A DNA stretch of 64,000 nt from Candidatus Omnitrophica bacterium UBA6215 (lineage in GTDB: Bacteria; Omnitrophota; Gorgyraeia; Pluralincolimonadales; Pluralincolimonadaceae), in contig DISH01000004.1 of NCBI GenBank assembly GCA_002421665.1, positions 23,174 through 87,173 on the forward strand, read 5' to 3'. The notes beneath the pieces are model-generated. The model saw only the letters and a program-made list of their open reading frames with translations. It made no database searches and was not told where the DNA came from. The translations under genes and the position numbers were made by a program. Positions 1 through 41,194 of the stretch are shown here, in pieces (within the stretch, counting starts at the first letter, position 1; each line of letters opens with the position of its first letter).

Positions 1-807
1 TTATTCAAGAGACTTTATATCACCGGATATAGGGATGGTTTTGTAGGTATTGTTTGGCATGTGCATAGATGGCATGATGATTTCGGTATAACCGATAAGA
101 TATCTTGGATGGATTTCGACCCCGACTGGGAAAAATCTTATCGATCAGGCCATGTCTTCGCGGATATAATAAGAAACACGAAAAAATCCTATCCCAATGC
201 CAAGCTCGATTTATTTATGCATTCATTAGGGGCGAATTTGGGTTGTTATGCATTAAGAATTCTTTCAGATAACAATGAAAGGATAGTTGATAATTTGATA
301 CTTCATGAAGCGGCGGTTCCCGGGGAAGTATTTACTGGTAAATATAAAACAAAGTTTAATTATCCTGGCTTAGACCCTATTTTGGGGTATCCTTTGATTT
401 TTAGGGCGGGTCTATTTGATAATATTTACGGAGATATCTTTAACATCTTGAAAGAGAAAGTTTACAACACATATTGTGATGAAGATAAAGCAATAAGTGT
501 TGCGCTTCCAGCCGCGGGCTTTCTTGGCCTTTCAACCCCTCTCGAGGATGACTATGAATTTTGTAATCTTGCAACAAGAACGGTTGCTAATAGTAAGTAT
601 GCAGGACTCGGTTGTTCTAAGGTAGATACGCAAAAATATAGCGATAGAATTGTTAATTTCCACGGGCTGATTGATTCTGAAACACATCCTTATGGGATAC
701 GAGACCATGGGAGCCAAACATCAGAGTATTATTTTGACGTTAAGTTTTTCTTCGGATGCATCTACGATCTAAACAAAATGGAAGGATTAAATACTGATAA
801 GGAGTAA
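1..807 (+). CDS. alpha/beta-hydrolase-like (putative lipase/esterase), 5'-truncated at window edge
   Basis: Open frame from nt 1 with no upstream stop (first Met at 61). MHSLGANLG resembles the serine-hydrolase nucleophile elbow. Lies in an AT-rich islet. Confidence 0.5.
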   Translation, partial: LFKRLYITGYRDGFVGIVWHVHRWHDDFGITDKISWMDFDPDWEKSYRSGHVFADIIRNTKKSYPNAKLDLFMHSLGANLGCYALRILSDNNERIVDNLILHEAAVPGEVFTGKYKTKFNYPGLDPILGYPLIFRAGLFDNIYGDIFNILKEKVYNTYCDEDKAISVALPAAGFLGLSTPLEDDYEFCNLATRTVANSKYAGLGCSKVDTQKYSDRIVNFHGLIDSETHPYGIRDHGSQTSEYYFDVKFFFGCIYDLNKMEGLNTDKE

Positions 808-811
808 ATGT

Positions 812-1807
812 ATGATAAAGAAAATAGTCTTTTGTACAATTTTCCTAACAGGATTTATGTGGTTTAACAGCAATACCTATTCTGTGCCGATTAAAATTAT
901 CCACCCTATCGATGTTTCTGGTAAGGTATTAGATCAAAATGGCAATCTTTTTACCGGTGACGTTGAAATTTTACTTAATGTAGGAATCGGGGTATTGGAT
1001 TACGAGTTGCCGGATTTACAAGGCCAGACGGAGTACAAAAAATACAAAATACAACTGCATGATGGTACATTTTCCTGGAAAGGCGAAGGTTCGGACGTAA
1101 CCGTAAAAGCGGTAAAGGAAGGTTACTATAGCACTAAGATAGATGTCCACGAAAGTCCTCTTGGCGAAGATATACAACAAATTATTGATGAGGCGCGCGA
1201 CCAAGGGTGCGGACCAGATGATTTATTTGAGAAATTTATGCATAATATGGTTGTTAAGCGCGACGATATCGTTATTCATCTTATTCAAAAAGGTACTCCG
1301 GTTAAGCTTGAATATGTTGGAGACGCTGATATTCCCAGTATAAATAGCAAAAAATCCTCAGGCAAGCAATGCGGGTGGTCTTTTGACAAGAAATGGTACT
1401 TTCCGGTTGATGGGGATGTCCCTGTGGATATCATACGCGGTATCAATGAAAATAAAAAACGCACCTATACCATAAAAGAACCGGGCGGTTTTGTTTATTT
1501 CGAAGGATACCCTGTTCTTGAGAGTGAAAATAAGGATTATTATCCATACGCTTCCTTCGATCTGATGACTGAAGCCCCGGAGACAGGGTATATTTCGACA
1601 TTTACCCCTGCAGAGCATAGGCCTACTTTTAGGGGCAATAGTTTCTTTTGCTATTTTAAGACCCCCGATGGCAAATATGGCAAGATATGTTTTGAAGGTG
1701 ACTTTAGCTACTACATCAATCCCGACGGCTCAAGGAACCTTGAGGCGGGGGAAGTAGTGAAGAAGTATCCCATAAATCCGATTGAGGCAAATAGACACAA
1801 GCGTTAA
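812..1807 (+). CDS. secreted/membrane-anchored hypothetical protein (signal peptide)
   Basis: Strong AGGAG SD 7 nt upstream. Hydrophobic N-terminus MIKKIVFCTIFLTGFMWF. No recognisable family. Same AT-rich islet, 4 nt after the upstream stop. Confidence 0.5.
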   Translation: MIKKIVFCTIFLTGFMWFNSNTYSVPIKIIHPIDVSGKVLDQNGNLFTGDVEILLNVGIGVLDYELPDLQGQTEYKKYKIQLHDGTFSWKGEGSDVTVKAVKEGYYSTKIDVHESPLGEDIQQIIDEARDQGCGPDDLFEKFMHNMVVKRDDIVIHLIQKGTPVKLEYVGDADIPSINSKKSSGKQCGWSFDKKWYFPVDGDVPVDIIRGINENKKRTYTIKEPGGFVYFEGYPVLESENKDYYPYASFDLMTEAPETGYISTFTPAEHRPTFRGNSFFCYFKTPDGKYGKICFEGDFSYYINPDGSRNLEAGEVVKKYPINPIEANRHKR

Positions 1808-1948
1808 TCTAACATTTCGGTAAAAATGCCACCGCCCGCGAGATGGTCTCCCCCGGCTGTGTATTCTTGGTGAATAATGATTATGATGAGTCGAATGTAA
1901 ACCCAAAAATTTTTATAAGCGGAAAAAGAATAGAGAAAGAAGGTAAAA

Positions 1949-3013
1949 ATGAAATACAAAATGGATCTCGTAAGCCCCGCCGTTTTCATCGGCAAACAGG
2001 GCAAGGGAGTCATAAGTTTCGGTTCCGGGCAGCCGGACCTGCCTCCGCCCAAAGAGGCCATACAGGGAATAGATATCCGTAAGGACCTTAGGTACGGCCT
2101 GATACAGGGAGAATACCCGCTCAGAGAGGCGCTGTCCAATGAATACCCGAATTCCACCGCGGATAATTTTGTCATAACCAACGGCGCCTCCGAAGCGCTT
2201 GACCTGATCTTCCGCGCGTGGGGCAAGGGGAAAGTGCTGCTCCCGAAGCCGTATTATTATTCTTACCTGCCGCTTGTGGAAATGGCGGGCATGGAGCCGG
2301 TATTCACCGATCTTGTAGAAGGCAGGATAGATATAGATGACTTCAAGAAGAAGATAAAAGGCTGCAAGGCGGTCCTGATAAATTCCCCGTCGAACCCTAC
2401 GGGCCGTGTCGAATTGATAGAGACCCTGAAAGAGATAGAGAAGATAACCGCTAAACTCGGCGTGTATGTCATCTCCGACGAAGTCTATAAGGACCTGATA
2501 TACGAGAGGGAGAACTACCATATAAAGGGCGGGCACGTCATTACGGTAAATTCCTTCTCTAAGACCTATGCCATGTGCGGGGTAAGGGTAGGTTACCTTT
2601 GGAGTTCCGACAAAAAAGTGGTCGATGATGTCATCGAGCTCAAGACCCACACCTCGATGAACACGAACCTCGTCGGGCAGGATATGGCCCTCAGGGCGAT
2701 GGCCGTCCCCAAAAAATACGTGATAGACCAGAAGGAGATATGGCGCAAGCGGAGGGACAGGATATACAACGGTTTCTGCGAGCTCGGTTTTGACCTGTGG
2801 CGGCCCGAGGGGGCTTTTTACATATTCCCGAAATGCAGGAACGCTAGGGAATTCCTCGCCACGCTGTTCCTGAAATATAAGGTGATATTCTATCTGGGGG
2901 AGTGGTTCGGCGCACCCGACCGTATCAGGCTCAGCTATGCCCTTGATGAGGCCCAGATAGACAAGGGGCTGGAGTGTATAAAGGCGGCGATGAAGAAGGT
3001 ACGGTGCCTCTAA
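1949..3013 (+). CDS. class I/II pyridoxal-phosphate-dependent aminotransferase
   Basis: NSPSNPTG and SFSKTYAMCGVRVGY (PLP-lysine) motifs typical of aspartate/aromatic aminotransferases. Confidence 0.85.
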   Translation: MKYKMDLVSPAVFIGKQGKGVISFGSGQPDLPPPKEAIQGIDIRKDLRYGLIQGEYPLREALSNEYPNSTADNFVITNGASEALDLIFRAWGKGKVLLPKPYYYSYLPLVEMAGMEPVFTDLVEGRIDIDDFKKKIKGCKAVLINSPSNPTGRVELIETLKEIEKITAKLGVYVISDEVYKDLIYERENYHIKGGHVITVNSFSKTYAMCGVRVGYLWSSDKKVVDDVIELKTHTSMNTNLVGQDMALRAMAVPKKYVIDQKEIWRKRRDRIYNGFCELGFDLWRPEGAFYIFPKCRNAREFLATLFLKYKVIFYLGEWFGAPDRIRLSYALDEAQIDKGLECIKAAMKKVRCL

Positions 3014-28705: not shown

Positions 28706-29965
28706 ATGAAAAAACTCTGTATTCCGGCGGTATTAGCTGCCCTTGCGCTGGTATCCCCGGTTGGCGCGGAAATCGCCTTTAACGCCTCAGACAGGGTGCT
28801 TGTGCTTGCCCCGCATCCCGATGATGAAGCTATAGGCGCCGCCGGCGCGATTAAACGGGCCGTTGATGCCGGCGCTTCGGTCAATGTCGTTTGCCTGACA
28901 AACGGCGATAACAACGAGATAGCTTTTCTTGTATATAAGAAACACCCCGTTCTGTCTTCCAAGGGCCTTATAAGGATGGGAGAGGCCAGAAGAAGAGAGA
29001 CGATAGCTGCCATGGACTCTATGGGTATCGCCGAGAACAATATCAGTTTCCTGGGCTATCCCGATTTCGGCACTCTTGCTATATTCACCGGATACTGGGG
29101 CGATACAAAGCCGTACGAAGCTATGCTTACCAAACAGAAGAAAGTACCGTATCCCGAGGCAGTCTCTTTCGGGGCCCCTTACGTGGGCGAGAGTATCCTT
29201 AAAGACATAAAACAGGTATTGACCGGTTACAAGCCGACCGTTATATTCGTATCGAACCCGGCCGATTCCAATTCCGACCATAAAGCGCTCTACCTTTTCT
29301 TGCGTGTTGCCTTGTGGGACCTGGAGGGATCAATGGGGCCTGTTAAGGTCTATCCATATATAGTGCATGTTTCCGGCTGGCCGGCGCCGAAGGGTTACCA
29401 CCCGGCGATGGACCTCAAGGCCCCGGCAGAGTTGAGGAGCCTTTCGTGGGAGACCGTCGGTCTTTCCGGTACCGAGATAGACTCAAAGCATACGGCCATA
29501 TCGAAATACAGGAGCCAGATCGAATACGACCCGCCGTACCTTTTCTCTTTCGCAAGGAAGAATGAGCTTTTTGGGGATTATCTCCCGCTTTACCTTGGAA
29601 GCGGTCTTAGTAACGGTTTATACAGGCTGGCCGGGGACAGGTTATTGATAACCATCCAGCAGGCAAGCGGTGATGATAAGGACAGGGACTTTACCGTGTA
29701 TTTAGCGGGATACAGGAAGGGAGAGGATTTTTCCCGGATGCCGAAACTTCATATAAGGATAGACCAGGACGGGCTTCATTGCAGGGACAAATACTGCCGT
29801 TTATATGCTAAGGATATTTCCCTGACGGAATCGGGCAGGAGCTTGACGATTAGCGTCCCGCTCTCGACCTTGGGCTTTCCGGACCGCGTTCTGGCCCATG
29901 TATCGGGCAGGACAGAGAAGATGGCGGCGGATGATACCAACTGGCGCGTTCTGGAACTCGAATGA
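28706..29965 (+). CDS. PIG-L/LmbE-family deacetylase, secreted, with C-terminal extension
   Basis: Signal peptide MKKLCIPAVLAALALVSPVGA. VLVLAPHPDDEAIGAAG zinc-deacetylase motif. Confidence 0.7.
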   Translation: MKKLCIPAVLAALALVSPVGAEIAFNASDRVLVLAPHPDDEAIGAAGAIKRAVDAGASVNVVCLTNGDNNEIAFLVYKKHPVLSSKGLIRMGEARRRETIAAMDSMGIAENNISFLGYPDFGTLAIFTGYWGDTKPYEAMLTKQKKVPYPEAVSFGAPYVGESILKDIKQVLTGYKPTVIFVSNPADSNSDHKALYLFLRVALWDLEGSMGPVKVYPYIVHVSGWPAPKGYHPAMDLKAPAELRSLSWETVGLSGTEIDSKHTAISKYRSQIEYDPPYLFSFARKNELFGDYLPLYLGSGLSNGLYRLAGDRLLITIQQASGDDKDRDFTVYLAGYRKGEDFSRMPKLHIRIDQDGLHCRDKYCRLYAKDISLTESGRSLTISVPLSTLGFPDRVLAHVSGRTEKMAADDTNWRVLELE

Positions 29966-29975
29966 GGGGCTTGTA

Positions 29976-31013
29976 ATGAAGAAGGATACCAGGGAATACG
30001 AGATAGGGAATAAAAACGTGGACAAGCTGATAGACCGGCTTACGTGCGAATCCTGTTCTCGCGAGACCGAATATCTTATCAGGGAGATACTGACGACCGC
30101 GGTTAAATTGGGCATGGAGTCCGGCGATGAAGGGGACCTGAAACTTGTAAATAATGCGCTTAAGGAATTGCGATATTCGTTCAAGATATTCACCCCTTAC
30201 AGGGACGTGAAGAAGGTCATAATATTCGGGTCGGCGAGGACCAGGAAGACCTCGCCGGAGTATAAAACGGCCGAGATCTTTGCCAGGAAGATGACTGACA
30301 AAGGATATATGATAGTTACCGGAGGCGGGCCGGGTATCATGGAGGCGGGCAATAAAGGGGCCAGGGCGGGTAAGGAATTCGCGCTCAATATCAGGCTTCC
30401 TTTTGAACAGAAGCCGAACCCGTTCATCTACGAAAAGAACAAGATAATCAATTTCAAGTATTTCTTTACCAGGAAACTCGTATTCATCAAGGAGACGGAT
30501 GCTACCGTCCTGTTTCCCGGCGGGTTCGGTACCAACGACGAAGGTTTCGAAATGCTGACTCTCGTACAGACGGGCAAGTCCAGGCCCAGACCGATAGTCA
30601 TGATGGAACCCGAGGGTTCCTCGTATTGGACACAGTGGAAGCGTTTTGTACGGGACCAACTGGAAGGCAACGGGTTCATAGATAAAGAAGACCTCAGCCT
30701 GTTCCGTATAGCCAGGACCGCCGATGAAGCCGCCGGGTATATCGAGGGTTTTTATAAAGTCTATCATTCGATACGCTACGTTTCGGGTCTTACGGTCCTC
30801 AGGTTGAACAAGAAACTCTCGAGCTCCGCGCTGGACAGGCTGAACAGGGATTTCAGGGACATCCTCACCAAAGGGGAGATAGGGCTTTCGCCTCCGACCG
30901 ATAAAGAGGTCCGCAGCAACGAGTATCTTGGCCTTCCCAGGCTGATAATGAACTTCAACATGCGCAATTACGGAAGGCTCTATGAGATGATAGAGGTCAT
31001 AAACAGGAGCTGA
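29976..31013 (+). CDS. LOG-family (TIGR00730) Rossmann protein, long form (PpnN-like nucleotide 5'-monophosphate nucleosidase?)
   Basis: IIFGSARTRK...GGGPGIMEAGNKGA...PGGFGTNDE LOG motifs, with N- and C-terminal extensions. Confidence 0.65.
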   Translation: MKKDTREYEIGNKNVDKLIDRLTCESCSRETEYLIREILTTAVKLGMESGDEGDLKLVNNALKELRYSFKIFTPYRDVKKVIIFGSARTRKTSPEYKTAEIFARKMTDKGYMIVTGGGPGIMEAGNKGARAGKEFALNIRLPFEQKPNPFIYEKNKIINFKYFFTRKLVFIKETDATVLFPGGFGTNDEGFEMLTLVQTGKSRPRPIVMMEPEGSSYWTQWKRFVRDQLEGNGFIDKEDLSLFRIARTADEAAGYIEGFYKVYHSIRYVSGLTVLRLNKKLSSSALDRLNRDFRDILTKGEIGLSPPTDKEVRSNEYLGLPRLIMNFNMRNYGRLYEMIEVINRS

Positions 31014-31029
31014 TCCGCAGGGGACCGCC

Positions 31030-32145
31030 ATGGACACCTTAGAAAAGCTTGCGACACTTTCCAGGGATTCGCGCTATGACCTTGCCTGTTCATGCGCTAC
31101 GGCGGAGAACGAGCACCGGCGCCGCTCGCGCGACGATAAATGGATATATCCGGTCATCCTTCCGGACGGGGGGACCACCTACCTGTTCAAGACATTGCTC
31201 TCCAACGAATGCATAAATAATTGCAGATACTGTCCCCTCAGGGTTGGCAGCGACACTTGCCGCTGCTCGATGACACCCGAGGAGACCGCAACGGCTTTTC
31301 TGGATTATTATAATTCAGGAAGGGTAACGGGACTATTCCTGAGCAGTGCGGTCTCGCGCAATCCCGACTCCACCATGGAACTGATAAACCGTACCGCATC
31401 CCTTCTGCGCAGGTCCGGGTTCAGGGGTTATATACATCTTAAGGTGATCCCGGGTGCTTCCGATGCCGCCATAACGCACAGTGTTTCACTTGCCAGCGCG
31501 GTTTCCCTGAACATAGAAACTGCCGGAGAGGAGAACTTCATGAGCCTGAGCGATACCAAGCATTACATGCGCGATATAATCGGCCCTATAAAATTGATAA
31601 GCCGCCTGACGGCAAAGGGCTGCCGTTATGATAGGGTCAAGCAGACAACGCAATTTGTCGTGGGGGCTTCCCGCGAGACAGACCGGCAGCTTATAAGCTA
31701 CTCTTGGAACCTGTACAGGAACCTGGGCTTGAGCCGAATTTATTTCAGCGCTTACCAGCGCGGTTGCGGGTCCCCGGACCTGCCGGGCGAAAATTCCCCC
31801 GTTACTAATGCAGAATTACTTGCAAGGGAGCACAGGTTGTATCAGGTGGACTGGCTGATGCGGAAATATGGTTTCCGCGGCGACGAAATACCCGTGGGCG
31901 TTGACGGGAACCTGTCTCTTGAGACGGACCCTAAAGAGATGTGGGCCAGGGCTCATCCCGAATTTTTCCCGGTGAACATAAATACTGACGGCAAACAGCG
32001 GTTGTTACGCGTCCCGGGTTTCGGGAAGATCATGATAGACAAGATATTAACGGCCAGGGGTTCGGGCTCCAGGATACGTTCTTTGGATCAACTTGGAAAG
32101 GTTGGCAGGGTCATGGGCAAGTCCCGGGGTTATATCACGTTCTGA
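31030..32145 (+). CDS. radical SAM protein with C-terminal helix-hairpin-helix (putative DNA modification/repair radical SAM)
   Basis: CINNCRYC (CxxxCxxC) radical SAM motif. C-terminal GFGKIMIDKIL HhH-like. Confidence 0.55.
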   Translation: MDTLEKLATLSRDSRYDLACSCATAENEHRRRSRDDKWIYPVILPDGGTTYLFKTLLSNECINNCRYCPLRVGSDTCRCSMTPEETATAFLDYYNSGRVTGLFLSSAVSRNPDSTMELINRTASLLRRSGFRGYIHLKVIPGASDAAITHSVSLASAVSLNIETAGEENFMSLSDTKHYMRDIIGPIKLISRLTAKGCRYDRVKQTTQFVVGASRETDRQLISYSWNLYRNLGLSRIYFSAYQRGCGSPDLPGENSPVTNAELLAREHRLYQVDWLMRKYGFRGDEIPVGVDGNLSLETDPKEMWARAHPEFFPVNINTDGKQRLLRVPGFGKIMIDKILTARGSGSRIRSLDQLGKVGRVMGKSRGYITF

Positions 32146-32169
32146 AAAACCTTGCCATAGCGGCAGATA

Positions 32170-32199
32170 GCCACTATAATGAAAACAGTGGCATTTTTT
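32170..32199 (+). terminator. candidate Rho-independent terminator
   Basis: GCCACT-11 nt loop-AGTGGC followed by ATTTTTT, 25 nt after the radical SAM stop. Confidence 0.4.
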
Positions 32200-32302: not shown

Positions 32303-33358
32303 ATGTCTGAGAAGATCTTAACGAGCCTTAACGGATTATCCGTATATATCCTGCCCGTAGGAGTATGTCTGGTTACGGTCATTCTGGGTTATATTGTCAG
32401 GAGCGTGATATTCAGGAGATTCCTGCACTGGGCGAGCAAAACCAAGACCGATATAGACGACATAATAATAATTTCGACAAGGACACCGTTCTTGGTATGG
32501 TGCCTTATGCTTGGCATATATTTCGGCCTGGAAGTCTCCCATATACCGAAGGAATGGGTAAGGGTATGCGGCAAGGCCCTTTTCGTTTTGGGTTCCCTCT
32601 CGGTCATGATGGTCCTCTCTAATATCTCCGCCAGATTCATAGCGGCGCGGTCCGCCAAGTTCGAATCGGCGCTCCCGGTAACTTCTCTTACCCAGAATGT
32701 AAGCCGTATAGTGATATTCGGCATAGGTCTGCTCCTTATACTCAATACGCTGGGCATAGCGATAACCCCGATACTGGCTACTTTGGGAGTTGGAGGTCTT
32801 GCCGTGGCCCTGGCGCTCCAGGATTCGTTATCCAACCTGTTTGCAGGGTTCCACATAGTTGCTTCCCGGCAGATCAAGATAGGCGACTACGTGAGGCTCG
32901 AAAGCGGGGAAGAAGGCTATGTTTCCGATATAACCTGGAGAAGCACAAAGATAAGGATGCTCGCGAACAACGTGATCCTTGTCCCGAATGCCAAACTGAC
33001 GCAGGTTATCACTACCAATTATTACCTTCCCGAAAAGGAGATGGCCGTGCTCGTGAACCTTGGGGTCCATTACGGCAGCGACCTTAAGAAAGTCGAAAGG
33101 GTTACCTGCGAAGTAGCCAGGGAAGTAATGAAAGAGGTGACCGGAGGCGTAGAAGGGTTCGAGCCGTTCATCCGTTACCATACATTCGGTGATTTCAGCA
33201 TAAATTTCAGTGTAATAATGAGGGCCAGAGAGTTCGTGGACCAGTACCTTATAAAACATGAGTTTGTTAAGAGACTCCACGAGAGGTATAATAAGGAAGG
33301 TATAGTGATACCATATCCGATAAGGGCGATCAATAACGAACAGGAAAGGACCCGGTAG
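32303..33358 (+). CDS. MscS-family mechanosensitive channel
   Basis: TM domain plus the conserved IKIGDYVRL...VILVPNAKL beta-domain. Confidence 0.85.
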   Translation: MSEKILTSLNGLSVYILPVGVCLVTVILGYIVRSVIFRRFLHWASKTKTDIDDIIIISTRTPFLVWCLMLGIYFGLEVSHIPKEWVRVCGKALFVLGSLSVMMVLSNISARFIAARSAKFESALPVTSLTQNVSRIVIFGIGLLLILNTLGIAITPILATLGVGGLAVALALQDSLSNLFAGFHIVASRQIKIGDYVRLESGEEGYVSDITWRSTKIRMLANNVILVPNAKLTQVITTNYYLPEKEMAVLVNLGVHYGSDLKKVERVTCEVAREVMKEVTGGVEGFEPFIRYHTFGDFSINFSVIMRAREFVDQYLIKHEFVKRLHERYNKEGIVIPYPIRAINNEQERTR

Positions 33359-33359
33359 C

Positions 33360-35594
33360 ATGAGACGTATCCTGCTATTCGTTTTGCCTATACTCATAAT
33401 CGCCGCGACCATATTTACCGTCTTCGGCATCTTCCAGGTCAACTTCGAGGAAAGCAAGCTGATGGATGACCTGCAAAGGAAAGCCAGGACCGTTGCAGAA
33501 AGCACCGAGCTCTCGGCCCGGTATATCCTGCTGAACAACGACCTCAGGTCAGCTAACCGTCTTACCGAGAGTTTCCAGAAGAGGGAAAGGCTGCAAGGTT
33601 GTGTCATATACGACAAGGCCGGTAATATCGTCTCAATAACCTCAAGGATATCGGATTGGGGCCACAAGGACAAGCCTTACATAAAGGAGACCCTGGAGAG
33701 CGGGGTCCCCAGGGCCGCTATGGAGAAGTTCAGGGAATATTCCGTTTACAGCTACGTCCTGCCTATACTCGACGATGATAAGAACGTCCTTGGGATCGTA
33801 GAGGTAATATATGACACTTCTTACGTCTTCTCGATCCTGACCGAGTTATGGAAGCACATAAGCACCGCCCTGATAACCCTCGTGGTATCGATAGCCCTTA
33901 TCGCCCTTTTGCTCCAAAGGCAGATATTCATATTGCCTATCCTGCAGTTGACGGAGTGGTTCCACAGTTTCCAGAAGGGCGAGACCGATGCGCAGCATCC
34001 CATAATAAAAGAGAAAGGCGCTTTCGGTAAACTTGCAAGTGAAGTAGAGCAGATAGCCCTGAGCCTGAGGATCGCGCGCAAGACCATCTCCGATAAAGCG
34101 CAGGTACGCCTGCAGAAAGAAGAACTCTGGACCGAGGACAAACTCAAGAACCTCGTTCTTGCCAAGCTTGGAGAGAATGCCCTCTACGTGGTATCGAACA
34201 GGGAGCCGTATATGCATGTCATCGAGGATGCTACCGGCAAGGCTAAATGCATCCGTCCGGCAAGCGGTGTTGTTACGGCGATAGATCCTATAATGCGCGC
34301 CTGCGGCGGGACATGGATAGCCCATGGTAGCGGTAACGCCGACAGGAAGTTCGTCAATTCCAAGAATAAGCTTCCGGTCCCTCCCGAGGACAACCGTTAT
34401 ATCCTGAAAAGGGTATGGCTGTCCAAGGAAGAGGAGCAGGGATACTATTACGGTTTTTCCAACGAGGGGCTTTGGCCGCTTTGTCATATAACGCATACGC
34501 GCCCGGTCTTCAGGGACGAGGATTGGGAGATGTATAAGAAGGTCAACCAGAAGTTTGCGGATGCCGTCCTGGAAGAACTGCCGTCCAAGAACCCGTTCGT
34601 GTTCATACAGGATTACCATTTTACCCTGTTGCCCAAGATGATAAAAGAGAAACAGCCGAATGCCACCATTGCGCTCTTTTGGCATATACCGTGGCCCAAC
34701 CCAGAGATATTCGCCACGTGCCCTTACCAAAAGCAGATACTCGACGGCATGTTGGGGTGCGACCTGATAGGGTTCCATGTCCAGTTCCACTGCAACAACT
34801 TCCTGGATACGGCGAACAGGTTCCTAGAATCGAGAGTGGATACCGAGAGGTTCGCCATAGTCCGCGCAGGGAAAGAGACCCTTGTCCGGGCGTTCCCGAT
34901 AAGCGTTGATAACTTCATGGAAGAGAAGGCGAAACAGGATGTAGCGGATGCGAAGAGCCTGATAGAAGAATTCGAGCTCAAGGACAAGATAGTAGCGGTT
35001 GGCGTAGAGAGGATAGATTACACAAAGGGTCTCGTCGAGAGGATAACCGCCGTAGACCGTTTCCTCGAGAAGTATCCCCAGTATAAACGTAAATTCGTAA
35101 TGGTACAGCTCGCGGCGCCCAGCAGGACCCATATCAAGCGCTACCATGACTTGATGGCAGAGATAGACGAGGCTGTCGAAAAGGTCAACTGGAAGCATTC
35201 GGACGGCAGCTGGAAGCCTATAATATACCTGAAGAAGCATTTTTCGCCCGAAGAGATAAAGCCTTATTTCGCAATGGCGGATATATGCATGGTCAGCTCG
35301 CTTCACGACGGGATGAACCTTGTAGCAAAGGAATATGTCATATCGAACAAGGAAATGAACGGTGTATTGATATTGAGCCGTTTCACGGGCGCAGCAAAGG
35401 AGTTGGCCGACGCGGTCCAGGTAAACCCGTATTCCATCGAAGAGTTCTCGGACGCGATAAAGACGGCTATAGAGATGCCGGCCGAAGAGAAGAGGAAACG
35501 CATGGAGAACATGCGCAATATAGTAAAAGAGAACAATATATATAAGTGGGCCGGCAGCATAATGACCGAGCTAACCTCTTTGAAGAAGGAATGA
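33360..35594 (+). CDS. otsA: membrane sensor (TM-Cache-like-TM-HAMP-like) fused to alpha,alpha-trehalose-phosphate synthase (GT20, OtsA)
   Basis: C-terminal about 470 aa is GT20 with hallmark ALFWHIPWPNPEIF. N-terminal about 270 aa has two TM helices flanking an extracytoplasmic domain and an amphipathic HAMP-like linker. Confidence 0.8.
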   Translation: MRRILLFVLPILIIAATIFTVFGIFQVNFEESKLMDDLQRKARTVAESTELSARYILLNNDLRSANRLTESFQKRERLQGCVIYDKAGNIVSITSRISDWGHKDKPYIKETLESGVPRAAMEKFREYSVYSYVLPILDDDKNVLGIVEVIYDTSYVFSILTELWKHISTALITLVVSIALIALLLQRQIFILPILQLTEWFHSFQKGETDAQHPIIKEKGAFGKLASEVEQIALSLRIARKTISDKAQVRLQKEELWTEDKLKNLVLAKLGENALYVVSNREPYMHVIEDATGKAKCIRPASGVVTAIDPIMRACGGTWIAHGSGNADRKFVNSKNKLPVPPEDNRYILKRVWLSKEEEQGYYYGFSNEGLWPLCHITHTRPVFRDEDWEMYKKVNQKFADAVLEELPSKNPFVFIQDYHFTLLPKMIKEKQPNATIALFWHIPWPNPEIFATCPYQKQILDGMLGCDLIGFHVQFHCNNFLDTANRFLESRVDTERFAIVRAGKETLVRAFPISVDNFMEEKAKQDVADAKSLIEEFELKDKIVAVGVERIDYTKGLVERITAVDRFLEKYPQYKRKFVMVQLAAPSRTHIKRYHDLMAEIDEAVEKVNWKHSDGSWKPIIYLKKHFSPEEIKPYFAMADICMVSSLHDGMNLVAKEYVISNKEMNGVLILSRFTGAAKELADAVQVNPYSIEEFSDAIKTAIEMPAEEKRKRMENMRNIVKENNIYKWAGSIMTELTSLKKE

Positions 35595-36394
35595 TGGTAT
35601 ATCTTTTCTCGCGCGAAGAAGAGATAAGGAAACGGATAGCAAAAAATTTCGTCTATCTATTCCTGGATTACGACGGCACGCTTACGCCTATAGCAGATAC
35701 GCCCGACAAGGCCCTGTTACCCGATGGTACGCGCAGCCTGTTGCGCGAGCTATCTAAGGTGCGCGGATGCAGACTGGCGGTAATAAGCGGAAGGTCTCTT
35801 AAAGATATAAAGAGGATGATCGGGCTGGAAGGCATAGTGTATTCAGGTAACCATGGGCTCGAGATAGACGGGCCGAAGCTCAAGTTCGAAAGCGTGGTTC
35901 CGCCCGGTTTCAAGAAGCTGATCAAGGATATAAAGTCCGCGCTGCGCATCAGGCTTGCGGGGGTAGACGGGCTGATATTTGAAGACAAGGGCCATACCTT
36001 AAGCGTCCATTACCGTATGGCGGACAGCCGTCAAATGCCTTTGGTGAAATCGGTTTTCCGTGAGATTACGGCTTGTCATTTGGCCGGCGGCAAGATAAAG
36101 ATAAAGACCGGGAAGATGATGCTGGAAGTCCGGCCTCCAATAGAATGGGACAAGGGCCGGTCAGTAATGTGGCTGCTCGCGAGGCAGAAGTTCATATCGC
36201 CGGAGGAACCGGTGATGCCGGTATACATAGGCGATGATGTGACCGATGAGGACGCGTTCTCTGCCCTGGGGAACAGGGGGTTGACGGTTTTTGTCGGCAA
36301 ACCCGGTAAGTCCGGAGCGAAATATTACCTGAAAGACCATAATGATGTAACGAAATTCCTGGGGTTGGTCAGGGACATCAAGAAGGCGGGATAA
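35592..36394 (+). CDS. otsB: trehalose-6-phosphate phosphatase (HAD, OtsB)
   Basis: FLDYDGTLTPIA motif I and GDDVTDE motif; start overlaps the otsA stop. Confidence 0.85.
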
Positions 36395-36395
36395 T

Positions 36396-37067
36396 ATGCA
36401 GGAACTGCAGAAAGCTAAAGAGCCGTTCGTATTTTATACCAGGATGCACTTATCCGAGCTTACGGGCCTGAGGGCTTCGACGCTCAACCAATTGTTACAG
36501 CTGGTCAAGGAGGTCAACGGTTCATGCATTTACCATCATACCCACAGGTTCCTCCAACAGCACCAGCACCTTTCTCCGGAACCTCCCAACGATTTTGCCT
36601 ACTGGGTGACCGAGGTCCTGGGTGAGGATGAACTTGGCGAGAAGCTGGCCAGCATAGACGTGATACAGTTCAACACGATCCGCAGCCTTAGGGAAAAGAT
36701 AGCCGAGACCATAGAATCATACCTTGCCGAGAACCCGATGGCCAAGGTCAGGTTTTCGAAAGAGAACGAGGAATTCCATTTCATGAAATCGATAAGTTTC
36801 GTCATGCCTACGAAATATGTCGCCCATGACCTTAACGATTTCGTGGAGATACTCGGGAAGATAACCATAGATTCCATATATTACCATATCTTCGAATCAC
36901 GCCTAAGGCTCGAAAAGAACGCGAACGATTTCAGCAACTGGTTCCTGACCTCTCTGGGCGATGACCGGCTTGCCGCGGAGATATCGAAACTTGATCCTTA
37001 CACGTTTACGCTTGAAGGGCTGAGGAACAGGGTCATACGCATAGTCAAAATAAGGATAGATTCCTGA
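36396..37067 (+). CDS. hypothetical protein with internal tandem repeat, embedded in the trehalose operon
   Basis: Two about 45-aa repeats (NDFAYWVTEVLGEDELGEKLASIDVIQF... and NDFSNWFLTSLGDDRLAAEISKLDPYTF...). 2-nt gaps to both neighbours. Confidence 0.5.
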   Translation: MQELQKAKEPFVFYTRMHLSELTGLRASTLNQLLQLVKEVNGSCIYHHTHRFLQQHQHLSPEPPNDFAYWVTEVLGEDELGEKLASIDVIQFNTIRSLREKIAETIESYLAENPMAKVRFSKENEEFHFMKSISFVMPTKYVAHDLNDFVEILGKITIDSIYYHIFESRLRLEKNANDFSNWFLTSLGDDRLAAEISKLDPYTFTLEGLRNRVIRIVKIRIDS

Positions 37068-37069
37068 AG

Positions 37070-38281
37070 ATGGCAAAAATAGAGGAATATATACCTATAG
37101 TCGGCCAGCCTATAATAGACGACCTGAGGCTGTTGGCCGAGAAGCTCAGCGGCAAGGTGGTCCAGAACATCAACTCCACTTCGGTCGGCGGCGGCGTAGC
37201 CGAGATACTTAACAGGATGGTCCCCCTGCTTAAGGAGCTGGGTGTCGACGCGCGCTGGGACCTTATAAAAGGGGGAGAGCAGTTTTTCGAGGTTACCAAG
37301 AAATTCCATAACGCGTTACACGGGGTGAATATCGAGGTCTCGAAAGAGGATTTCGACGTTTTTCTCGAGACAAGCCGGACGAACATGAATGAGATGAACC
37401 TTTACGGGGATATAGTTTTTGTCCATGACCCCCAGCCCGTGGCGCTTGTCGACAAGAAACAGGACAAGAAATGGGTCTGGCGCTGTCATGTGGACGTATC
37501 CGAACCCAGCGAGGAGGTCTGGCAGTTCCTCAGGGGCTTTATTGACAAGTACGATTCCGCGGTATTTTCGGCGCCGGCGTTTTCCCAGAAGTTGCCCATA
37601 AGGCAGTTCCTGATATCTCCTTCGATCGACCCGTTGAGCGACAAGAACAAGGAACTGCCGCAGGAGACGATCGACGCGGTTCTCAGGAAATACGGCATCC
37701 CGTCCGATAAGCCTATAGTAACCCAGATATCGCGTTTCGACAGGCTAAAGGACCCGTTGGGCGTCATTAAGGTGTATAAACAGGTAAAGAGATATTCCGA
37801 TTTCAGGCTCATCCTTGCCGGAGGCGGCGCCACTGACGATCCCGAGAGCGCCGAGGTCCTTTTAGAGGTCAGGGAGGCTGCGAAAGACGACCCCGACATA
37901 CACGTCCTGCTGCTGGCGCAAAACGACATAGAGATAAATGCCTTACAAAGGGCCTCTACCGTAATAATGCAGAAGTCCATAAGAGAAGGTTTCGGTCTGA
38001 CCGTTTCCGAAGCTTTGTGGAAGTCCAAACCTATGGTTGCCTCGAATGTCGGCGGCATACCCCTGCAGATCGCCCACAAATATTCCGGCCTGTTATGCAA
38101 TTCGATAGAAGGGGCAAGTTTCGCCCTCAAACAGCTGCTCAACAGCCCGGATTACGCTCGCAGGCTCGGCGAGAACGGCAGGGAGCACGTAAAGAACAAT
38201 TTCCTCATAACCCGCCATCTCAAGGAGTACATGCTCCTGTTCCTTTCGCTTTACCACGCCGAAGATGTAGTCTACTTATGA
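37070..38281 (+). CDS. treT: trehalose glycosyltransferring synthase (TreT, GT4)
   Basis: N-terminus NSTSVGGGVAEILNRMVPLLKELGVDARWDLIKG...FFEVTKKFHNALHG closely matches archaeal/bacterial TreT. Confidence 0.75.
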   Translation: MAKIEEYIPIVGQPIIDDLRLLAEKLSGKVVQNINSTSVGGGVAEILNRMVPLLKELGVDARWDLIKGGEQFFEVTKKFHNALHGVNIEVSKEDFDVFLETSRTNMNEMNLYGDIVFVHDPQPVALVDKKQDKKWVWRCHVDVSEPSEEVWQFLRGFIDKYDSAVFSAPAFSQKLPIRQFLISPSIDPLSDKNKELPQETIDAVLRKYGIPSDKPIVTQISRFDRLKDPLGVIKVYKQVKRYSDFRLILAGGGATDDPESAEVLLEVREAAKDDPDIHVLLLAQNDIEINALQRASTVIMQKSIREGFGLTVSEALWKSKPMVASNVGGIPLQIAHKYSGLLCNSIEGASFALKQLLNSPDYARRLGENGREHVKNNFLITRHLKEYMLLFLSLYHAEDVVYL

Positions 38282-39408
38282 CAGTAACAGGGTCCGCCGA
38301 TATAGCCGTTATAGGCGCGGGCGTCGTAGGACTTGCTGTATCCTCGAAACTGGTTTCGTCGGGCCGCGAGGTATTCCTTATCGAGAGGCACGATTCCTTT
38401 GGCCGCGAAACGAGTTCCAGGAACAGTGAAGTTATACACGCGGGTATTTATTATCCCGCGGACTCCCTGAAGAGAAAAACTTGTGTCGAAGGCAATAGGC
38501 TGCTTTACGAGTATTGCGCGCAGAACCGCATCCCGCACAGGAAGACAGGCAAGCTTATAGTTGCTGCCAGCGAAGACGAGGTGCCGGACCTCAAGGCCCT
38601 TTTAGAGAAGGGCATAGGCAACGGCGTTGCAGGGCTGGAGATGCTCTCCAAGAAAGATATAGGCGGCATGGAGCCGGAAATTCGCGCTGCCGCGGCGATA
38701 TTTTCCCCGGATACAGGCATCATCGATACGCATTCTCTCATGAAAGACCTCGAGCGCAAATTCAAGGGCGGCGGGGGGACCCTTTCCTATAATACCGATG
38801 TCCGTTCCATAGAGAAGACAAAAGGCGGATATAAGGTAACCGTAAATGATGCCGACGGCAGCTTGACCGTCCTGCAGGCCAGAGTCCTTGTCAATTGCGC
38901 AGGGCTTGATTCGGGGAGGATCGCCGCAATGACAGGACTTGATATCCCTGAATACAGGATAAGACCGTGCAAAGGCGATTATTTTCGCCTGAACCCGTCG
39001 AAGGCAAAGCTTATCGGCCGCCTTGTGTATCCCGTGCCAAAAAAGAAAGGCGCCGGCCTGGGGATACACGCGACACCCGATCTCGGGGGAGGGGTAAGGT
39101 TGGGTCCGGACGAGGAGTATGTCTATAATATAGATTATAAAGTAGATGTTTCGAAGAGCAATGATTTTTACGAAAGCGTAAAGACTTTCCTTCCGTTTAT
39201 TACGCCGGACGACCTGAGCCCGGACACTTCGGGAATAAGGCCGAAACTCCAGGGACCGGGAGAAGATTTCAGGGATTTCGTGATAAGGGAGGAATCAGAC
39301 AGGGGATATCCCGGCCTGGTCGACCTTATCGGTATAGAATCGCCCGGCCTGACCGCGTGCCTTTCCATAGCCTGCATCGTCAAAAAAATTCTTGATACCA
39401 TAGATTGA
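38278..39408 (+). CDS. FAD-dependent oxidoreductase, L-2-hydroxyglutarate oxidase/dehydrogenase (LhgO) family
   Basis: IAVIGAGVVGLA dinucleotide fold and SRNSEVIHAGIYYP motif. ATGA overlap with treT. Confidence 0.7.
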   Translation: MTVTGSADIAVIGAGVVGLAVSSKLVSSGREVFLIERHDSFGRETSSRNSEVIHAGIYYPADSLKRKTCVEGNRLLYEYCAQNRIPHRKTGKLIVAASEDEVPDLKALLEKGIGNGVAGLEMLSKKDIGGMEPEIRAAAAIFSPDTGIIDTHSLMKDLERKFKGGGGTLSYNTDVRSIEKTKGGYKVTVNDADGSLTVLQARVLVNCAGLDSGRIAAMTGLDIPEYRIRPCKGDYFRLNPSKAKLIGRLVYPVPKKKGAGLGIHATPDLGGGVRLGPDEEYVYNIDYKVDVSKSNDFYESVKTFLPFITPDDLSPDTSGIRPKLQGPGEDFRDFVIREESDRGYPGLVDLIGIESPGLTACLSIACIVKKILDTID

Positions 39409-39427
39409 ATTCACTATAATATCACCT

Positions 39428-41194
39428 ATGTCTACACCTCTGAAAAAATGGGTCGAAGAACAAGCCAAGCTCACCAAACCCGACAGGATAATCTGGTGCG
39501 ACGGTTCCGAAGAAGAGACCCGCAGGATACTTGAGATAGGGATCAAGGAAGAGAAGATCGACGGGCATCCCGTCTTCAGGGAACTTAACCAGAAGACCTG
39601 GCCGGGCGCTTATTACCATATGAGCCACCACACGGATGTCGCTCGTACGGAGCACCTGACCTTTGTCTGCCATCCCGATAAGGATACGGCCGGCCCTAAC
39701 AATAACTGGATGGATCCCGGCGAGGCCAAGGCCCTTTTGACCAAAGTCTCCGACGGCTGCATGAAAGGAAAGACGATGTATGTCCTTCCTTACATGATGG
39801 GCCATCCGGATTCGCCTTATGCCAAGGCATGCATCCAGATCACAGATGTCTCATATGTCGCGGTAAGTATGCGCATCATGACCCGCATGAGCAAGAAGGT
39901 CATAGACAAGATAGGCGACCGCCACGATTTCGTCAAAGGTCTGCATTCGGTAGGTGACTTCGACCCGGCAAAAAGGTACATAATGCATTTCCCGGACGAG
40001 CATTTTGTGTGGAGCATAGGTTCCGGTTACGGCGGCAACGCCTTGCTGGGCAAGAAATGTTTTTCGTTAAGGCTCGCGTCGTGGCTGGGTTACCAGGAAG
40101 GATGGCTTGCGGAACATATGGTCATCCTGGGAGTCGAGAGCCCGGAAGGGGAGACCACTTATATTACGGCGGCCATGCCTTCGGCTTGCGGAAAGACGAA
40201 CCTTGCTATGCTCGAGTCCGCGCTGCCGGGTTACAAGATCCGGACCATAGGCGACGATATTGCGTGGCTCAACATAGGCCCGGACGGCAAGCTTTATGCA
40301 ATAAATCCCGAAACGGGGCTCTTTGGGGTCGCCCCGGGGACATCGAAGAAGACCAACCCTAATATGCTTAAGACCCTTAAGGGCAGAAAATTCTTTCCTA
40401 CGCTTTTTACCAATACCGCTTTGGATACCGATAAGAACGAACCGTGGTGGGAAGGCCTTGACGGCCCCGTACCGGATAACCTGTTGGATTGGCAGGGGCA
40501 TGCCTGGAAGCCCGGCAGTGAAAAGAAGGCCGCGCACCCGAATTCCCGTTTTACCGCGTCGATATATAATTGCCCGATGCTTTCGAAAGAATTCGACAAT
40601 CCTTCGGGAGTGCCGATATCCGCAATAATTCTCGGCGGGCGCAGGACGCATCTTATACCGCTTGTTACCGAGGCGTTGAACTGGGAGCAGGGCGTGTTCC
40701 TTGGCGCCAGGACGGGTTCCGAGACTACAGCCGCGGCCGCGCATAAAGTCGGCGTGCTCCGCAGGGACCCCATGGCCATGCTTCCTTTCTGCGGATACAA
40801 TATGGGCGACTATTTCAGCCATTGGCTGAATATAGGCCGTCGCATGCATAACCCCCCGAAGATCTTCGCCGTTAACTGGTTCAGGACGAACGATGAAGGC
40901 AAGTTCATGTGGCCGGGCTTTGGCGAGAATATACGCGTCCTGAAATGGGTGATCGAGAGGGTAAACGATAAAGTAAAGGCGAAAGAGACCCCGATAGGCC
41001 TTGTCCCTTACGCGAAGGACCTTGATTTGACGGGCCTTGATATATCCAAGAAAGACCTGAATAAATTGCTCGAGACGGACGCAGATGAGTGGGGAGCCGA
41101 ATTGGACGACATCGAAGCCTTCTTCAATAAGTTCGGCGACCGGCTTCCTGACGAGTTACGCCGGCAGCTCAAGGCATTAAGGGCGGCTTTCTGA
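39428..41194 (+). CDS. pckG: phosphoenolpyruvate carboxykinase (GTP)
   Basis: 588 aa; kinase-1a AMPSACGKTNLAML; typical N-terminus. Confidence 0.9.
   Translation: MSTPLKKWVEEQAKLTKPDRIIWCDGSEEETRRILEIGIKEEKIDGHPVFRELNQKTWPGAYYHMSHHTDVARTEHLTFVCHPDKDTAGPNNNWMDPGEAKALLTKVSDGCMKGKTMYVLPYMMGHPDSPYAKACIQITDVSYVAVSMRIMTRMSKKVIDKIGDRHDFVKGLHSVGDFDPAKRYIMHFPDEHFVWSIGSGYGGNALLGKKCFSLRLASWLGYQEGWLAEHMVILGVESPEGETTYITAAMPSACGKTNLAMLESALPGYKIRTIGDDIAWLNIGPDGKLYAINPETGLFGVAPGTSKKTNPNMLKTLKGRKFFPTLFTNTALDTDKNEPWWEGLDGPVPDNLLDWQGHAWKPGSEKKAAHPNSRFTASIYNCPMLSKEFDNPSGVPISAIILGGRRTHLIPLVTEALNWEQGVFLGARTGSETTAAAAHKVGVLRRDPMAMLPFCGYNMGDYFSHWLNIGRRMHNPPKIFAVNWFRTNDEGKFMWPGFGENIRVLKWVIERVNDKVKAKETPIGLVPYAKDLDLTGLDISKKDLNKLLETDADEWGAELDDIEAFFNKFGDRLPDELRRQLKALRAAF

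Follow-up and report, generated by a model that had tools for sequence, protein, structure and literature searches.

OrfY, a duplicated DUF5752 protein encoded directly before treT in a probable Omnitrophota trehalose operon, and its possible role as a partner of TreT

What does a 223-residue protein do when its gene is wedged between those for a trehalose-6-phosphate phosphatase and a trehalose synthase? The question is raised by a Candidatus Omnitrophota locus in the 64,000-nucleotide (nt) stretch of DNA analysed here (the window), for which a preliminary description had reported otsB, this protein, treT and the gene of a flavoenzyme as one tightly packed series, taking the protein to be of an unknown kind and leaving the flavoenzyme unexplained. 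We find that the protein falls into the OrfY/DUF5752 family, for which a structure was solved earlier, and that its gene belongs to a string that reads, on the + strand, mscS, otsA, otsB, orfY, treT and flavin adenine dinucleotide (FAD) oxidoreductase gene, with pckG next. The identity of OrfY and the architecture of the operon, taken as a joint claim, we regard as virtually certain. Our best explanation overall, which blends this identity and architecture with an adaptor mechanism for OrfY, stands a little better than an even chance of being right.

Family, fold and internal duplication of OrfY

The 223-residue protein scores 232.7 bits with Pfam DUF5752 (PF19027), for which the cut-off is 23, and its residues 9–217 cover profile positions 2–207 of 208. 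It is a homologue of OrfY from Thermoproteus tenax (PDB 4CSO), to which it aligns in phmmer at E 9.6e-24 (residues 5–218 against 5–211, 30% identity), and can no longer be called unknown. Structure prediction, which had been proposed as a check, leads to the same place. An AlphaFold2 (AF2) model with a predicted local distance difference test score (pLDDT) of 89.8 and a predicted template modelling score (pTM) of 0.80 was matched by Foldseek to 4cso_A at E 4.7e-17, with template modelling (TM) scores of 0.83/0.86 and a root-mean-square deviation of 2.6 Å. Searched against the PDB, the model had no match other than 4CSO below E 0.5; judged from the model, the fold is otherwise unique in that database. 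The 4CSO entry, a crystal structure dating from 2014, is entitled ‘The structure of OrfY from Thermoproteus tenax’, and in the literature searched we found no paper that deals with DUF5752, with the 4CSO structure, or with OrfY in connection with T. tenax or trehalose.

The family is large: about 5000 clusters at 90% identity and 769 at 50% identity match the window protein. A search with T. tenax OrfY returned 30 proteins, all with PF19027, the named ones coming from Thermoproteus, Pyrobaculum and Nitrospirota. An identical (100%) OrfY is present on several metagenome contigs, and the nearest named relatives are proteins from Omnitrophota metagenome-assembled genomes (MAGs). The reading frame is conserved and under strong purifying selection (ratio of nonsynonymous to synonymous substitution rates, dN/dS, of 0.05–0.09 against three relatives). 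Two DUF5752 proteins in our set, P0285 and P0332, bear the source names ‘septum formation topological specificity factor MinE’ and ‘2-hydroxyacyl-CoA dehydratase’; these we set aside as mis-annotations.

OrfY consists of two tandem copies of a unit some 105 residues long, in which a β-hairpin is combined with a helical bundle. In BLASTP, residues 1–115 align with residues 116–223 over about 102 residues at 24% identity (E 1e-9). Half-profiles built from 78 diverse DUF5752 members give a much stronger match of the N-terminal to the C-terminal half in hhalign (probability 99.8%, E 2e-30, 103 columns), and each half of the AF2 model consists of a long β-hairpin followed by five helices. Two homologous halves had been recognised before, and on this point the preliminary description was right; the core of about 45 residues that it assigned to them was too short, since the repeat spans the entire protein.

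Comparison of the same 78 members reveals the residues that are conserved in each repeat: F11, F13, H48, N65-D66-F67, W70 and E82 in the first, and F127, F129, H164, N177-D178-F179, W182 and D200-P201-Y202 in the second, so that the motif N-D-F-x-x-W occurs in both halves. In agreement with what had been stated earlier, the protein has no catalytic motif.

The orfY–treT pair and fusions of the DUF5752 family

The gene directly downstream of orfY encodes, by its sequence, a bona fide homologue of TreT (EC 2.4.1.245), with the predicted reaction of NDP-glucose (nucleoside diphosphate glucose) and glucose to trehalose. Its N-terminal TreT domain (PF21269) scores 185.3 bits and its C-terminal GT1 domain 83.4 bits. 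The protein aligns with T. uzoniensis TreT (PDB 6ZJ4) over 394 columns at 48% identity (E 4.8e-124) and with P. horikoshii TreT (PDB 2X6Q) at E 6.7e-101. The NCBIfam model for Thermococcales TreT, NF041139, is not reached (377 versus 775 bits); since this model is specific to one order, the score below its cut-off is no argument against TreT function.

To place the pair in context we drew on two samples: 80 species-level Omnitrophota loci with 64–96% OrfY identity, annotated by tblastn with the window proteins, and 88 scripted loci from Omnitrophota, Elusimicrobia, other bacteria and Thermoproteales archaea, those outside Omnitrophota being reached through DUF5752 cluster representatives and their encoding contigs. 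In 87 of these 88, the script placed DUF5752 directly 5′ of treT, and the inferred gap between the two had a median of 1 nt. In the 88th, L089, it took a second DUF5752 copy, and the gene table shows a fused copy directly before treT. The co-occurrence of orfY with treT, another check proposed at the outset, is seen in every orfY locus examined. In bacteria and archaea alike, the two genes are usually 0–4 nt apart or overlapping, and within Omnitrophota treT comes next after DUF5752 in all loci that reach that far.

The upstream genes are nearly as constant. Of 76 loci, 74 have otsB immediately 5′ of DUF5752. Among the 51 Omnitrophota loci whose sequence extends far enough upstream, 50 carry otsA, and the order otsA–otsB–DUF5752–treT is kept across the Omnitrophota species loci. 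The same order is found in an Elusimicrobia MAG (L088) and, preceded by mscS, in L087; L092 likewise has DUF5752 after otsB and before treT. In L091, a distant DUF5752 (about 34% identity) follows a gene in which trehalose-6-phosphate synthase and phosphatase are fused (TPS–TPP, or TPSP), with treT next. An MscS gene also adjoins the module in L087, L090 and L093. Among the archaea, Pyrobaculum ferrireducens has a DUF5752 gene overlapping treT, a divergent MscS gene adjacent and a sugar ABC transporter after the pair. On a T. tenax-type contig, orfY overlaps treT by 4 nt; across the 207 residues compared, its product and 4CSO are 100% identical. Downstream, treT is the final gene of the conserved cassette, as seen in the 63 Omnitrophota loci with at least 1.5 kb beyond it.

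DUF5752 also occurs fused to other proteins, which we counted among the 150 best representatives of the 50%-identity clusters. Fusions to MscS account for 15 of these 150 (for example P0123, P0128, P0131, P0136, P0141, P0161, P0167, P0170, P0180, P0202 and P0238). In these proteins of about 460 residues, the transmembrane and β domains of the channel are retained and DUF5752 stands in place of the C-terminal α–β domain. P0123, the one fusion among the 15 with its locus examined, has treT 10 nt downstream. In L085 and L086, an MscS::DUF5752 gene lies between a GlgA-like glycogen synthase gene and treT, and otsAB is not nearby.

Two further representatives, both complete (745 and 713 residues; match to PDB 4O7O at E 3.5e-49), join a maltokinase (Mak/Pep2) to DUF5752, and their genes at L089 (3354–5591) and L090 (1528–3669) have treT immediately downstream. 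L089 carries in addition a TreS-like amylase, a GlgA/GlgM-like glycosyltransferase (GT), a GT2 enzyme, an MscS-like gene and the second, free DUF5752, a content that suggests a combined locus in which trehalose and α-glucan would be interconverted. One representative is an OtsB::DUF5752 fusion. The apparent DUF5752::TreT fusions P0160 and P0220 are short and truncated, with unaligned middles; they are probable frameshift or assembly artefacts and were not counted.

The pairing has a boundary on the side of TreT. TreT homologues of 38–44% identity on haloarchaeal and Streptomyces plasmids had no DUF5752 neighbour, and no DUF5752 was found in the plasmid collection. The existence of plasmid TreT proteins without DUF5752 implies that OrfY is an accessory to one TreT lineage and is not needed by the enzyme as such.

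Possible roles of OrfY

We propose that OrfY may be a non-catalytic partner of TreT, working by an adaptor or regulator mechanism, and give this proposal slightly less than an even chance. A regulator, scaffold or binding partner was among the roles first suggested for the protein, and comparative genomics favours a role of this kind because orfY always lies directly before treT and because DUF5752 is also found joined to MscS, maltokinase and OtsB. The mechanism we envisage would have several parts: (I) the MscS channel would act as a release valve; (II) OtsA, with a membrane sensor domain of its own, would make trehalose-6-phosphate, on which OtsB would act as the phosphatase; (III) TreT would provide a second route, from NDP-glucose and glucose to trehalose; and (IV) OrfY would bind TreT and make its activity depend on the osmotic state that the MscS channel reports. 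In other organisms, OrfY might provide a similar coupling to the trehalose-consuming Mak route. OrfY could possibly also sense trehalose or glucose itself, through the pseudo-symmetric His, Asn-Asp-Phe and Trp motifs of each repeat. The outcome would be synthesis at low turgor and release or shut-off once the channel opens.

Several points weigh against this proposal. Recombinant TreT from T. tenax and T. uzoniensis is reported to be active without OrfY, hence any effect of OrfY would have to be modulatory. Only about half of the Omnitrophota loci that extend far enough upstream (28 of 51) have an mscS gene, which then precedes otsA or separates it from otsB. Conserved gene order and fusion point to a functional link but cannot by themselves separate an adaptor from a ligand sensor or an enzyme. 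Finally, the depositors of 4CSO named its chain ‘ORFY PROTEIN, TRANSCRIPTION FACTOR’.

The adaptor proposal has a more far-reaching form, a tension-controlled trehalose machine, which we put forward tentatively and consider rather unlikely. Here, OrfY would be the transducer that attaches TreT (maltokinase or OtsB in other lineages) to an MscS-type channel on its cytoplasmic side, perhaps binding trehalose via its pseudo-two-fold repeats. If this were true, the cell would switch the making of the osmolyte, its conversion to glycogen and its exit through the channel all together, and the cage of an MscS::OrfY fusion would comprise seven OrfY domains, making it a trehalose- or TreT-gated MscS.

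The alternative that survives best, although we hold it to be doubtful, is that OrfY is chiefly a small-molecule sensor, with a putative pseudo-two-fold site for trehalose, glucose or NDP-glucose in place of a TreT-specific docking module. From this site it would allosterically control the fused or adjacent TreT, MscS, maltokinase or OtsB. The conserved aromatic and polar residues in both repeats (H48/H164, N-D-F 65–67/177–179, W70/W182; E82) form a pattern that is typical of sugar-binding sites and less so of protein or DNA interfaces, every fusion partner handles or releases trehalose, and MscS-family channels with ligand-binding C-terminal domains are known. A general trehalose sensor would, however, be expected beside TreS, TreYZ, trehalases and transporters without TreT, yet treT lies directly downstream everywhere we examined. 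We note that a sensor overlaps with our best explanation and is not an exclusive alternative to it.

That OrfY is a transcription factor for treT or the trehalose operon appears improbable. The name given to the 4CSO chain speaks for it, as does the small, mainly helical two-repeat protein being encoded with its presumed target. The protein has, however, no helix-turn-helix (HTH), winged HTH (wHTH), ribbon-helix-helix (RHH) or other DNA-binding Pfam match and no DNA-binding structural neighbour, Foldseek having matched 4CSO alone. Its isoelectric point (pI) of about 5.9 (family median 6.2) and its conserved residues, which are His, Asp, Trp and Phe and not Arg or Lys, argue in the same direction. 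In addition, orfY sits in mid-operon, translationally coupled to treT, and C-terminal fusion to heptameric membrane channels, and to a kinase, fits DNA binding poorly.

Decidedly improbable, in our view, is an unrecognised enzyme (such as a metal-dependent hydrolase, isomerase or phosphotransferase) with an intermediate of the trehalose pathway as its substrate. The residues H48, D66, E82, H164 and D178, which vary little or not at all, could be metal ligands, and with a novel fold the absence of OrfY from enzyme families is of little weight. Against this, helical repeats that are duplicated and pseudo-symmetric are more often those of binding modules, the pathway is complete with OtsA, OtsB and TreT and needs no extra step, and a fusion to a channel C-terminus would be unusual for an enzyme.

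In sum, the orfY–treT pairing at every locus examined, in Archaea and several bacterial phyla, together with the module and the fusions, turns an orphan structure into a testable hypothesis: that of a partner protein linking compatible-solute synthesis to an osmotic release valve.

The locus, its flavoenzyme and known trehalose systems

The region first described is best explained as the 3′ portion of an operon for osmoprotection by trehalose, to which, in this lineage, an unrelated FAD oxidoreductase gene is appended (Table 1). The successive junctions from mscS to pckG measure +1, −4, +1, +2, −4 and +19 nt, the otsA stop and otsB start overlapping as ATGA at the first −4. The close packing reported for otsB, the 223-residue reading frame, treT and the FAD gene, with gaps of −4 to +2, holds on measurement (+1, +2 and −4 nt), and the OtsAB and TreT genes do share a single tightly packed string, their families being confirmed by Pfam and NCBIfam. 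Overlooked at first was the upstream part of the string, mscS (32303) and otsA (33360), which lie +1 nt apart. Of the limits originally given to the segment, the end at 39408 is correct; the start at 35592 is one base off frame, the in-frame ATG of otsB being at 35591.

Table 1. Features of the trehalose locus in window coordinates
Feature	Position	Strand	Size or extent	Basis and remarks
Promoter-like site TTGCCA-17-TATAAT	32152..32180	+		11/12, consensus scan; a match only, not proof
mscS, small-conductance mechanosensitive channel	32303..33358	+	351 residues	PF00924, PF21088, PF21082
otsA, trehalose-6-phosphate synthase	33360..35594	+	GT20 = residues 275–739	PF00982, 415 bits, E 5e-124
otsB, trehalose-6-phosphate phosphatase	35591..36394	+	267 residues	TIGR00685, 172.8 bits (cut-off 68); PF02358
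orfY, DUF5752 protein	36396..37067	+	223 residues	PF19027, 232.7 bits
OrfY repeat 1	36396..36740	+	residues 1–115	β-hairpin, then helices
OrfY repeat 2	36741..37064	+	residues 116–223	architecture as repeat 1
treT, trehalose glycosyltransferring synthase (GT4), Thermoproteus type	37070..38281	+	403 residues	PF21269 + PF00534
FAD-dependent oxidoreductase, D-amino acid oxidase (DAO) family, LhgO/L2HGDH-like	38278..39408	+	376 residues	PF01266, E 1e-60
Promoter-like site TTGATA-17-TATAAT	39392..39420	+		11/12, consensus match only
pckG, GTP-dependent phosphoenolpyruvate (PEP) carboxykinase	39428-41194	+

Two promoter-like sites flank the string. The first, which is sigma-70-like, sits in a 157-nt intergenic gap 5′ of mscS, the ATG of which is preceded by a GGGAGG Shine-Dalgarno sequence, and is the probable start of the trehalose operon. 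The second ends 7 nt 5′ of the pckG ATG (39428), where a Shine-Dalgarno sequence is absent; this suggests that pckG is transcribed separately, possibly without a leader, and that the FAD gene closes the trehalose string. Given these flanking sites, the most plausible extent of the packed string is mscS to the FAD gene, with pckG apart.

The window MscS is complete, with all three MscS domains. OtsB contains a HAD-IIB trehalose-phosphatase domain, and its TIGR00685 score lies above the cut-off. OtsA misses the cut-off of the OtsA equivalog TIGR02400 (431 versus 565) and is distinguished by its N-terminus, residues 1–275 (33360–34180) forming a sensor-kinase-like input module fused directly to the GT20 domain. 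By domain matches and hydropathy, this module comprises a transmembrane segment (1–30), a dCache_3-like extracytoplasmic domain of about 135 residues, a second transmembrane segment (163–198) and a HAMP-like linker; the dCache_3 score of 24.4 bits is slightly under its cut-off, and the N-terminus is WalK-like. Where otsA is present in Omnitrophota, 42 of 50 loci encode the long, sensor-fused form and others one of about 490 residues. Such an OtsA would be a one-component membrane sensor driving trehalose-6-phosphate synthesis.

The flavoenzyme is established, by its sequence, only as a member of the DAO superfamily (PF01266). It comes nearest to LhgO yet stays below the cut-off of the LhgO equivalog NF008726 (257.4 bits versus 299), and its best PDB match is the uncharacterised 3DME (E 3.4e-86), followed by L2HGDH 8W75 (E 2.7e-51). 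Its gene follows treT in 4 of the 63 Omnitrophota loci, L005–L008. These four are the nearest relatives, with OrfY identity of at least 81%, and keep the entire downstream synteny through pckG–pabB–rSAM. In the other 59, the genes after treT are mutually unrelated, no family being present in more than 5 of the 63, and the flavoenzyme was not seen in any non-Omnitrophota or archaeal locus examined. Since it follows treT in these four loci only and the downstream genes elsewhere are unrelated, the flavoenzyme is a lineage-specific neighbour that lies outside the conserved module. As first reported, it is part of the string in the window and probably co-transcribed with treT in this organism.

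A part for the flavoenzyme in trehalose metabolism, including the suggestion that it supplies or removes a 2-hydroxy-acid acceptor for TreT, is very improbable indeed and was rejected on synteny: the 4-nt overlap with treT and the lack of a strong promoter-like site between the two genes speak for co-transcription, whereas the distribution just described, a TreT 48% identical to a bona fide trehalose synthase and a score under the LhgO cut-off lend neither the trehalose role nor the acceptor idea support.

The FAD and GTP-dependent PEP carboxykinase genes stay close in the four nearest relatives, with a minus-strand reading frame of about 438 residues between them in L006–L008. Speculatively, a flavoenzyme oxidising malate or another 2-hydroxy acid might feed gluconeogenesis. 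On the other side of the string, window positions 29898–32145 encode a LOG/SLOG-family protein (‘lysine decarboxylase-like’, PF03641 + PF18306) and a 371-residue protein that has a helix-hairpin-helix motif at its C-terminus as well as a CxxxCxxC-like radical-SAM signature; a LOG gene again lies 5′ of the trehalose module in L006 and L007. The G+C content is 0.39 in window positions 1–2000 and 0.47–0.56 across the remaining window.

Among known systems, the closest counterpart of the window protein is T. tenax OrfY (4CSO), with which it shares full-length homology, fold, the two-repeat architecture and a gene that abuts or overlaps treT. The window protein is, however, bacterial (Omnitrophota), whereas the founder is crenarchaeal; its orfY–treT pair sits behind mscS–otsA–otsB in one string; and the label ‘transcription factor’ is not borne out by our sequence and structure checks. 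The orfY–treT operon was reportedly described in the T. tenax TreT paper of Kouril et al. in 2008. Similarly, the window TreT has the same TreT_GT1 N-domain and GT1 C-domain as the enzymes of T. uzoniensis (6ZJ4), P. horikoshii (2X6Q) and T. tenax (unidirectional). In Thermococcales, treT lies in a maltose/trehalose ABC-transporter cluster that is not known to contain orfY. The flavoenzyme has the same DAO-family FAD fold as LhgO/L2HGDH and 3DME; it differs from LhgO in its score under the equivalog cut-off, and its synteny with the trehalose module is confined to the closest relatives.

The fusions place OrfY where regulatory or complex-forming modules are found in other systems, such as MscS channels with C-terminal sensor domains and the mycobacterial TreS–maltokinase (Pep2) complex (5JY7). 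In contrast to the MscS and maltokinase fusions, the window OrfY is free-standing, and the window mscS retains its own C-terminal domain.

The locus also resembles the msc–gt–tpsp operon of T. tenax, in which a mechanosensitive channel gene, a TPS/TPP route and a GT4 are likewise combined and which serves as a precedent for the mechanism proposed here. There, the GT4 activates TPSP through complex formation, and the mechanosensitive channel protein (MSC) has been proposed as a valve that jettisons trehalose on stress relief, with synthesis under stress (Zaparty et al. 2013, PMC3634074). The T. tenax MSC, of 197 residues, resembles the MscS transmembrane region only (PMC3634074), whereas the window MscS is complete. 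Furthermore, otsA and otsB are separate in the window and not a fused TPSP, the fused form being found in L091, and the window GT4 is a true TreT homologue preceded by OrfY. An OrfY family with a solved structure and a pairing of orfY with treT, as in T. tenax, are thus of an already known kind; the breadth of the bacterial mscS–otsAB–orfY–treT module, and the fusions of the family to MscS and maltokinase, look new.

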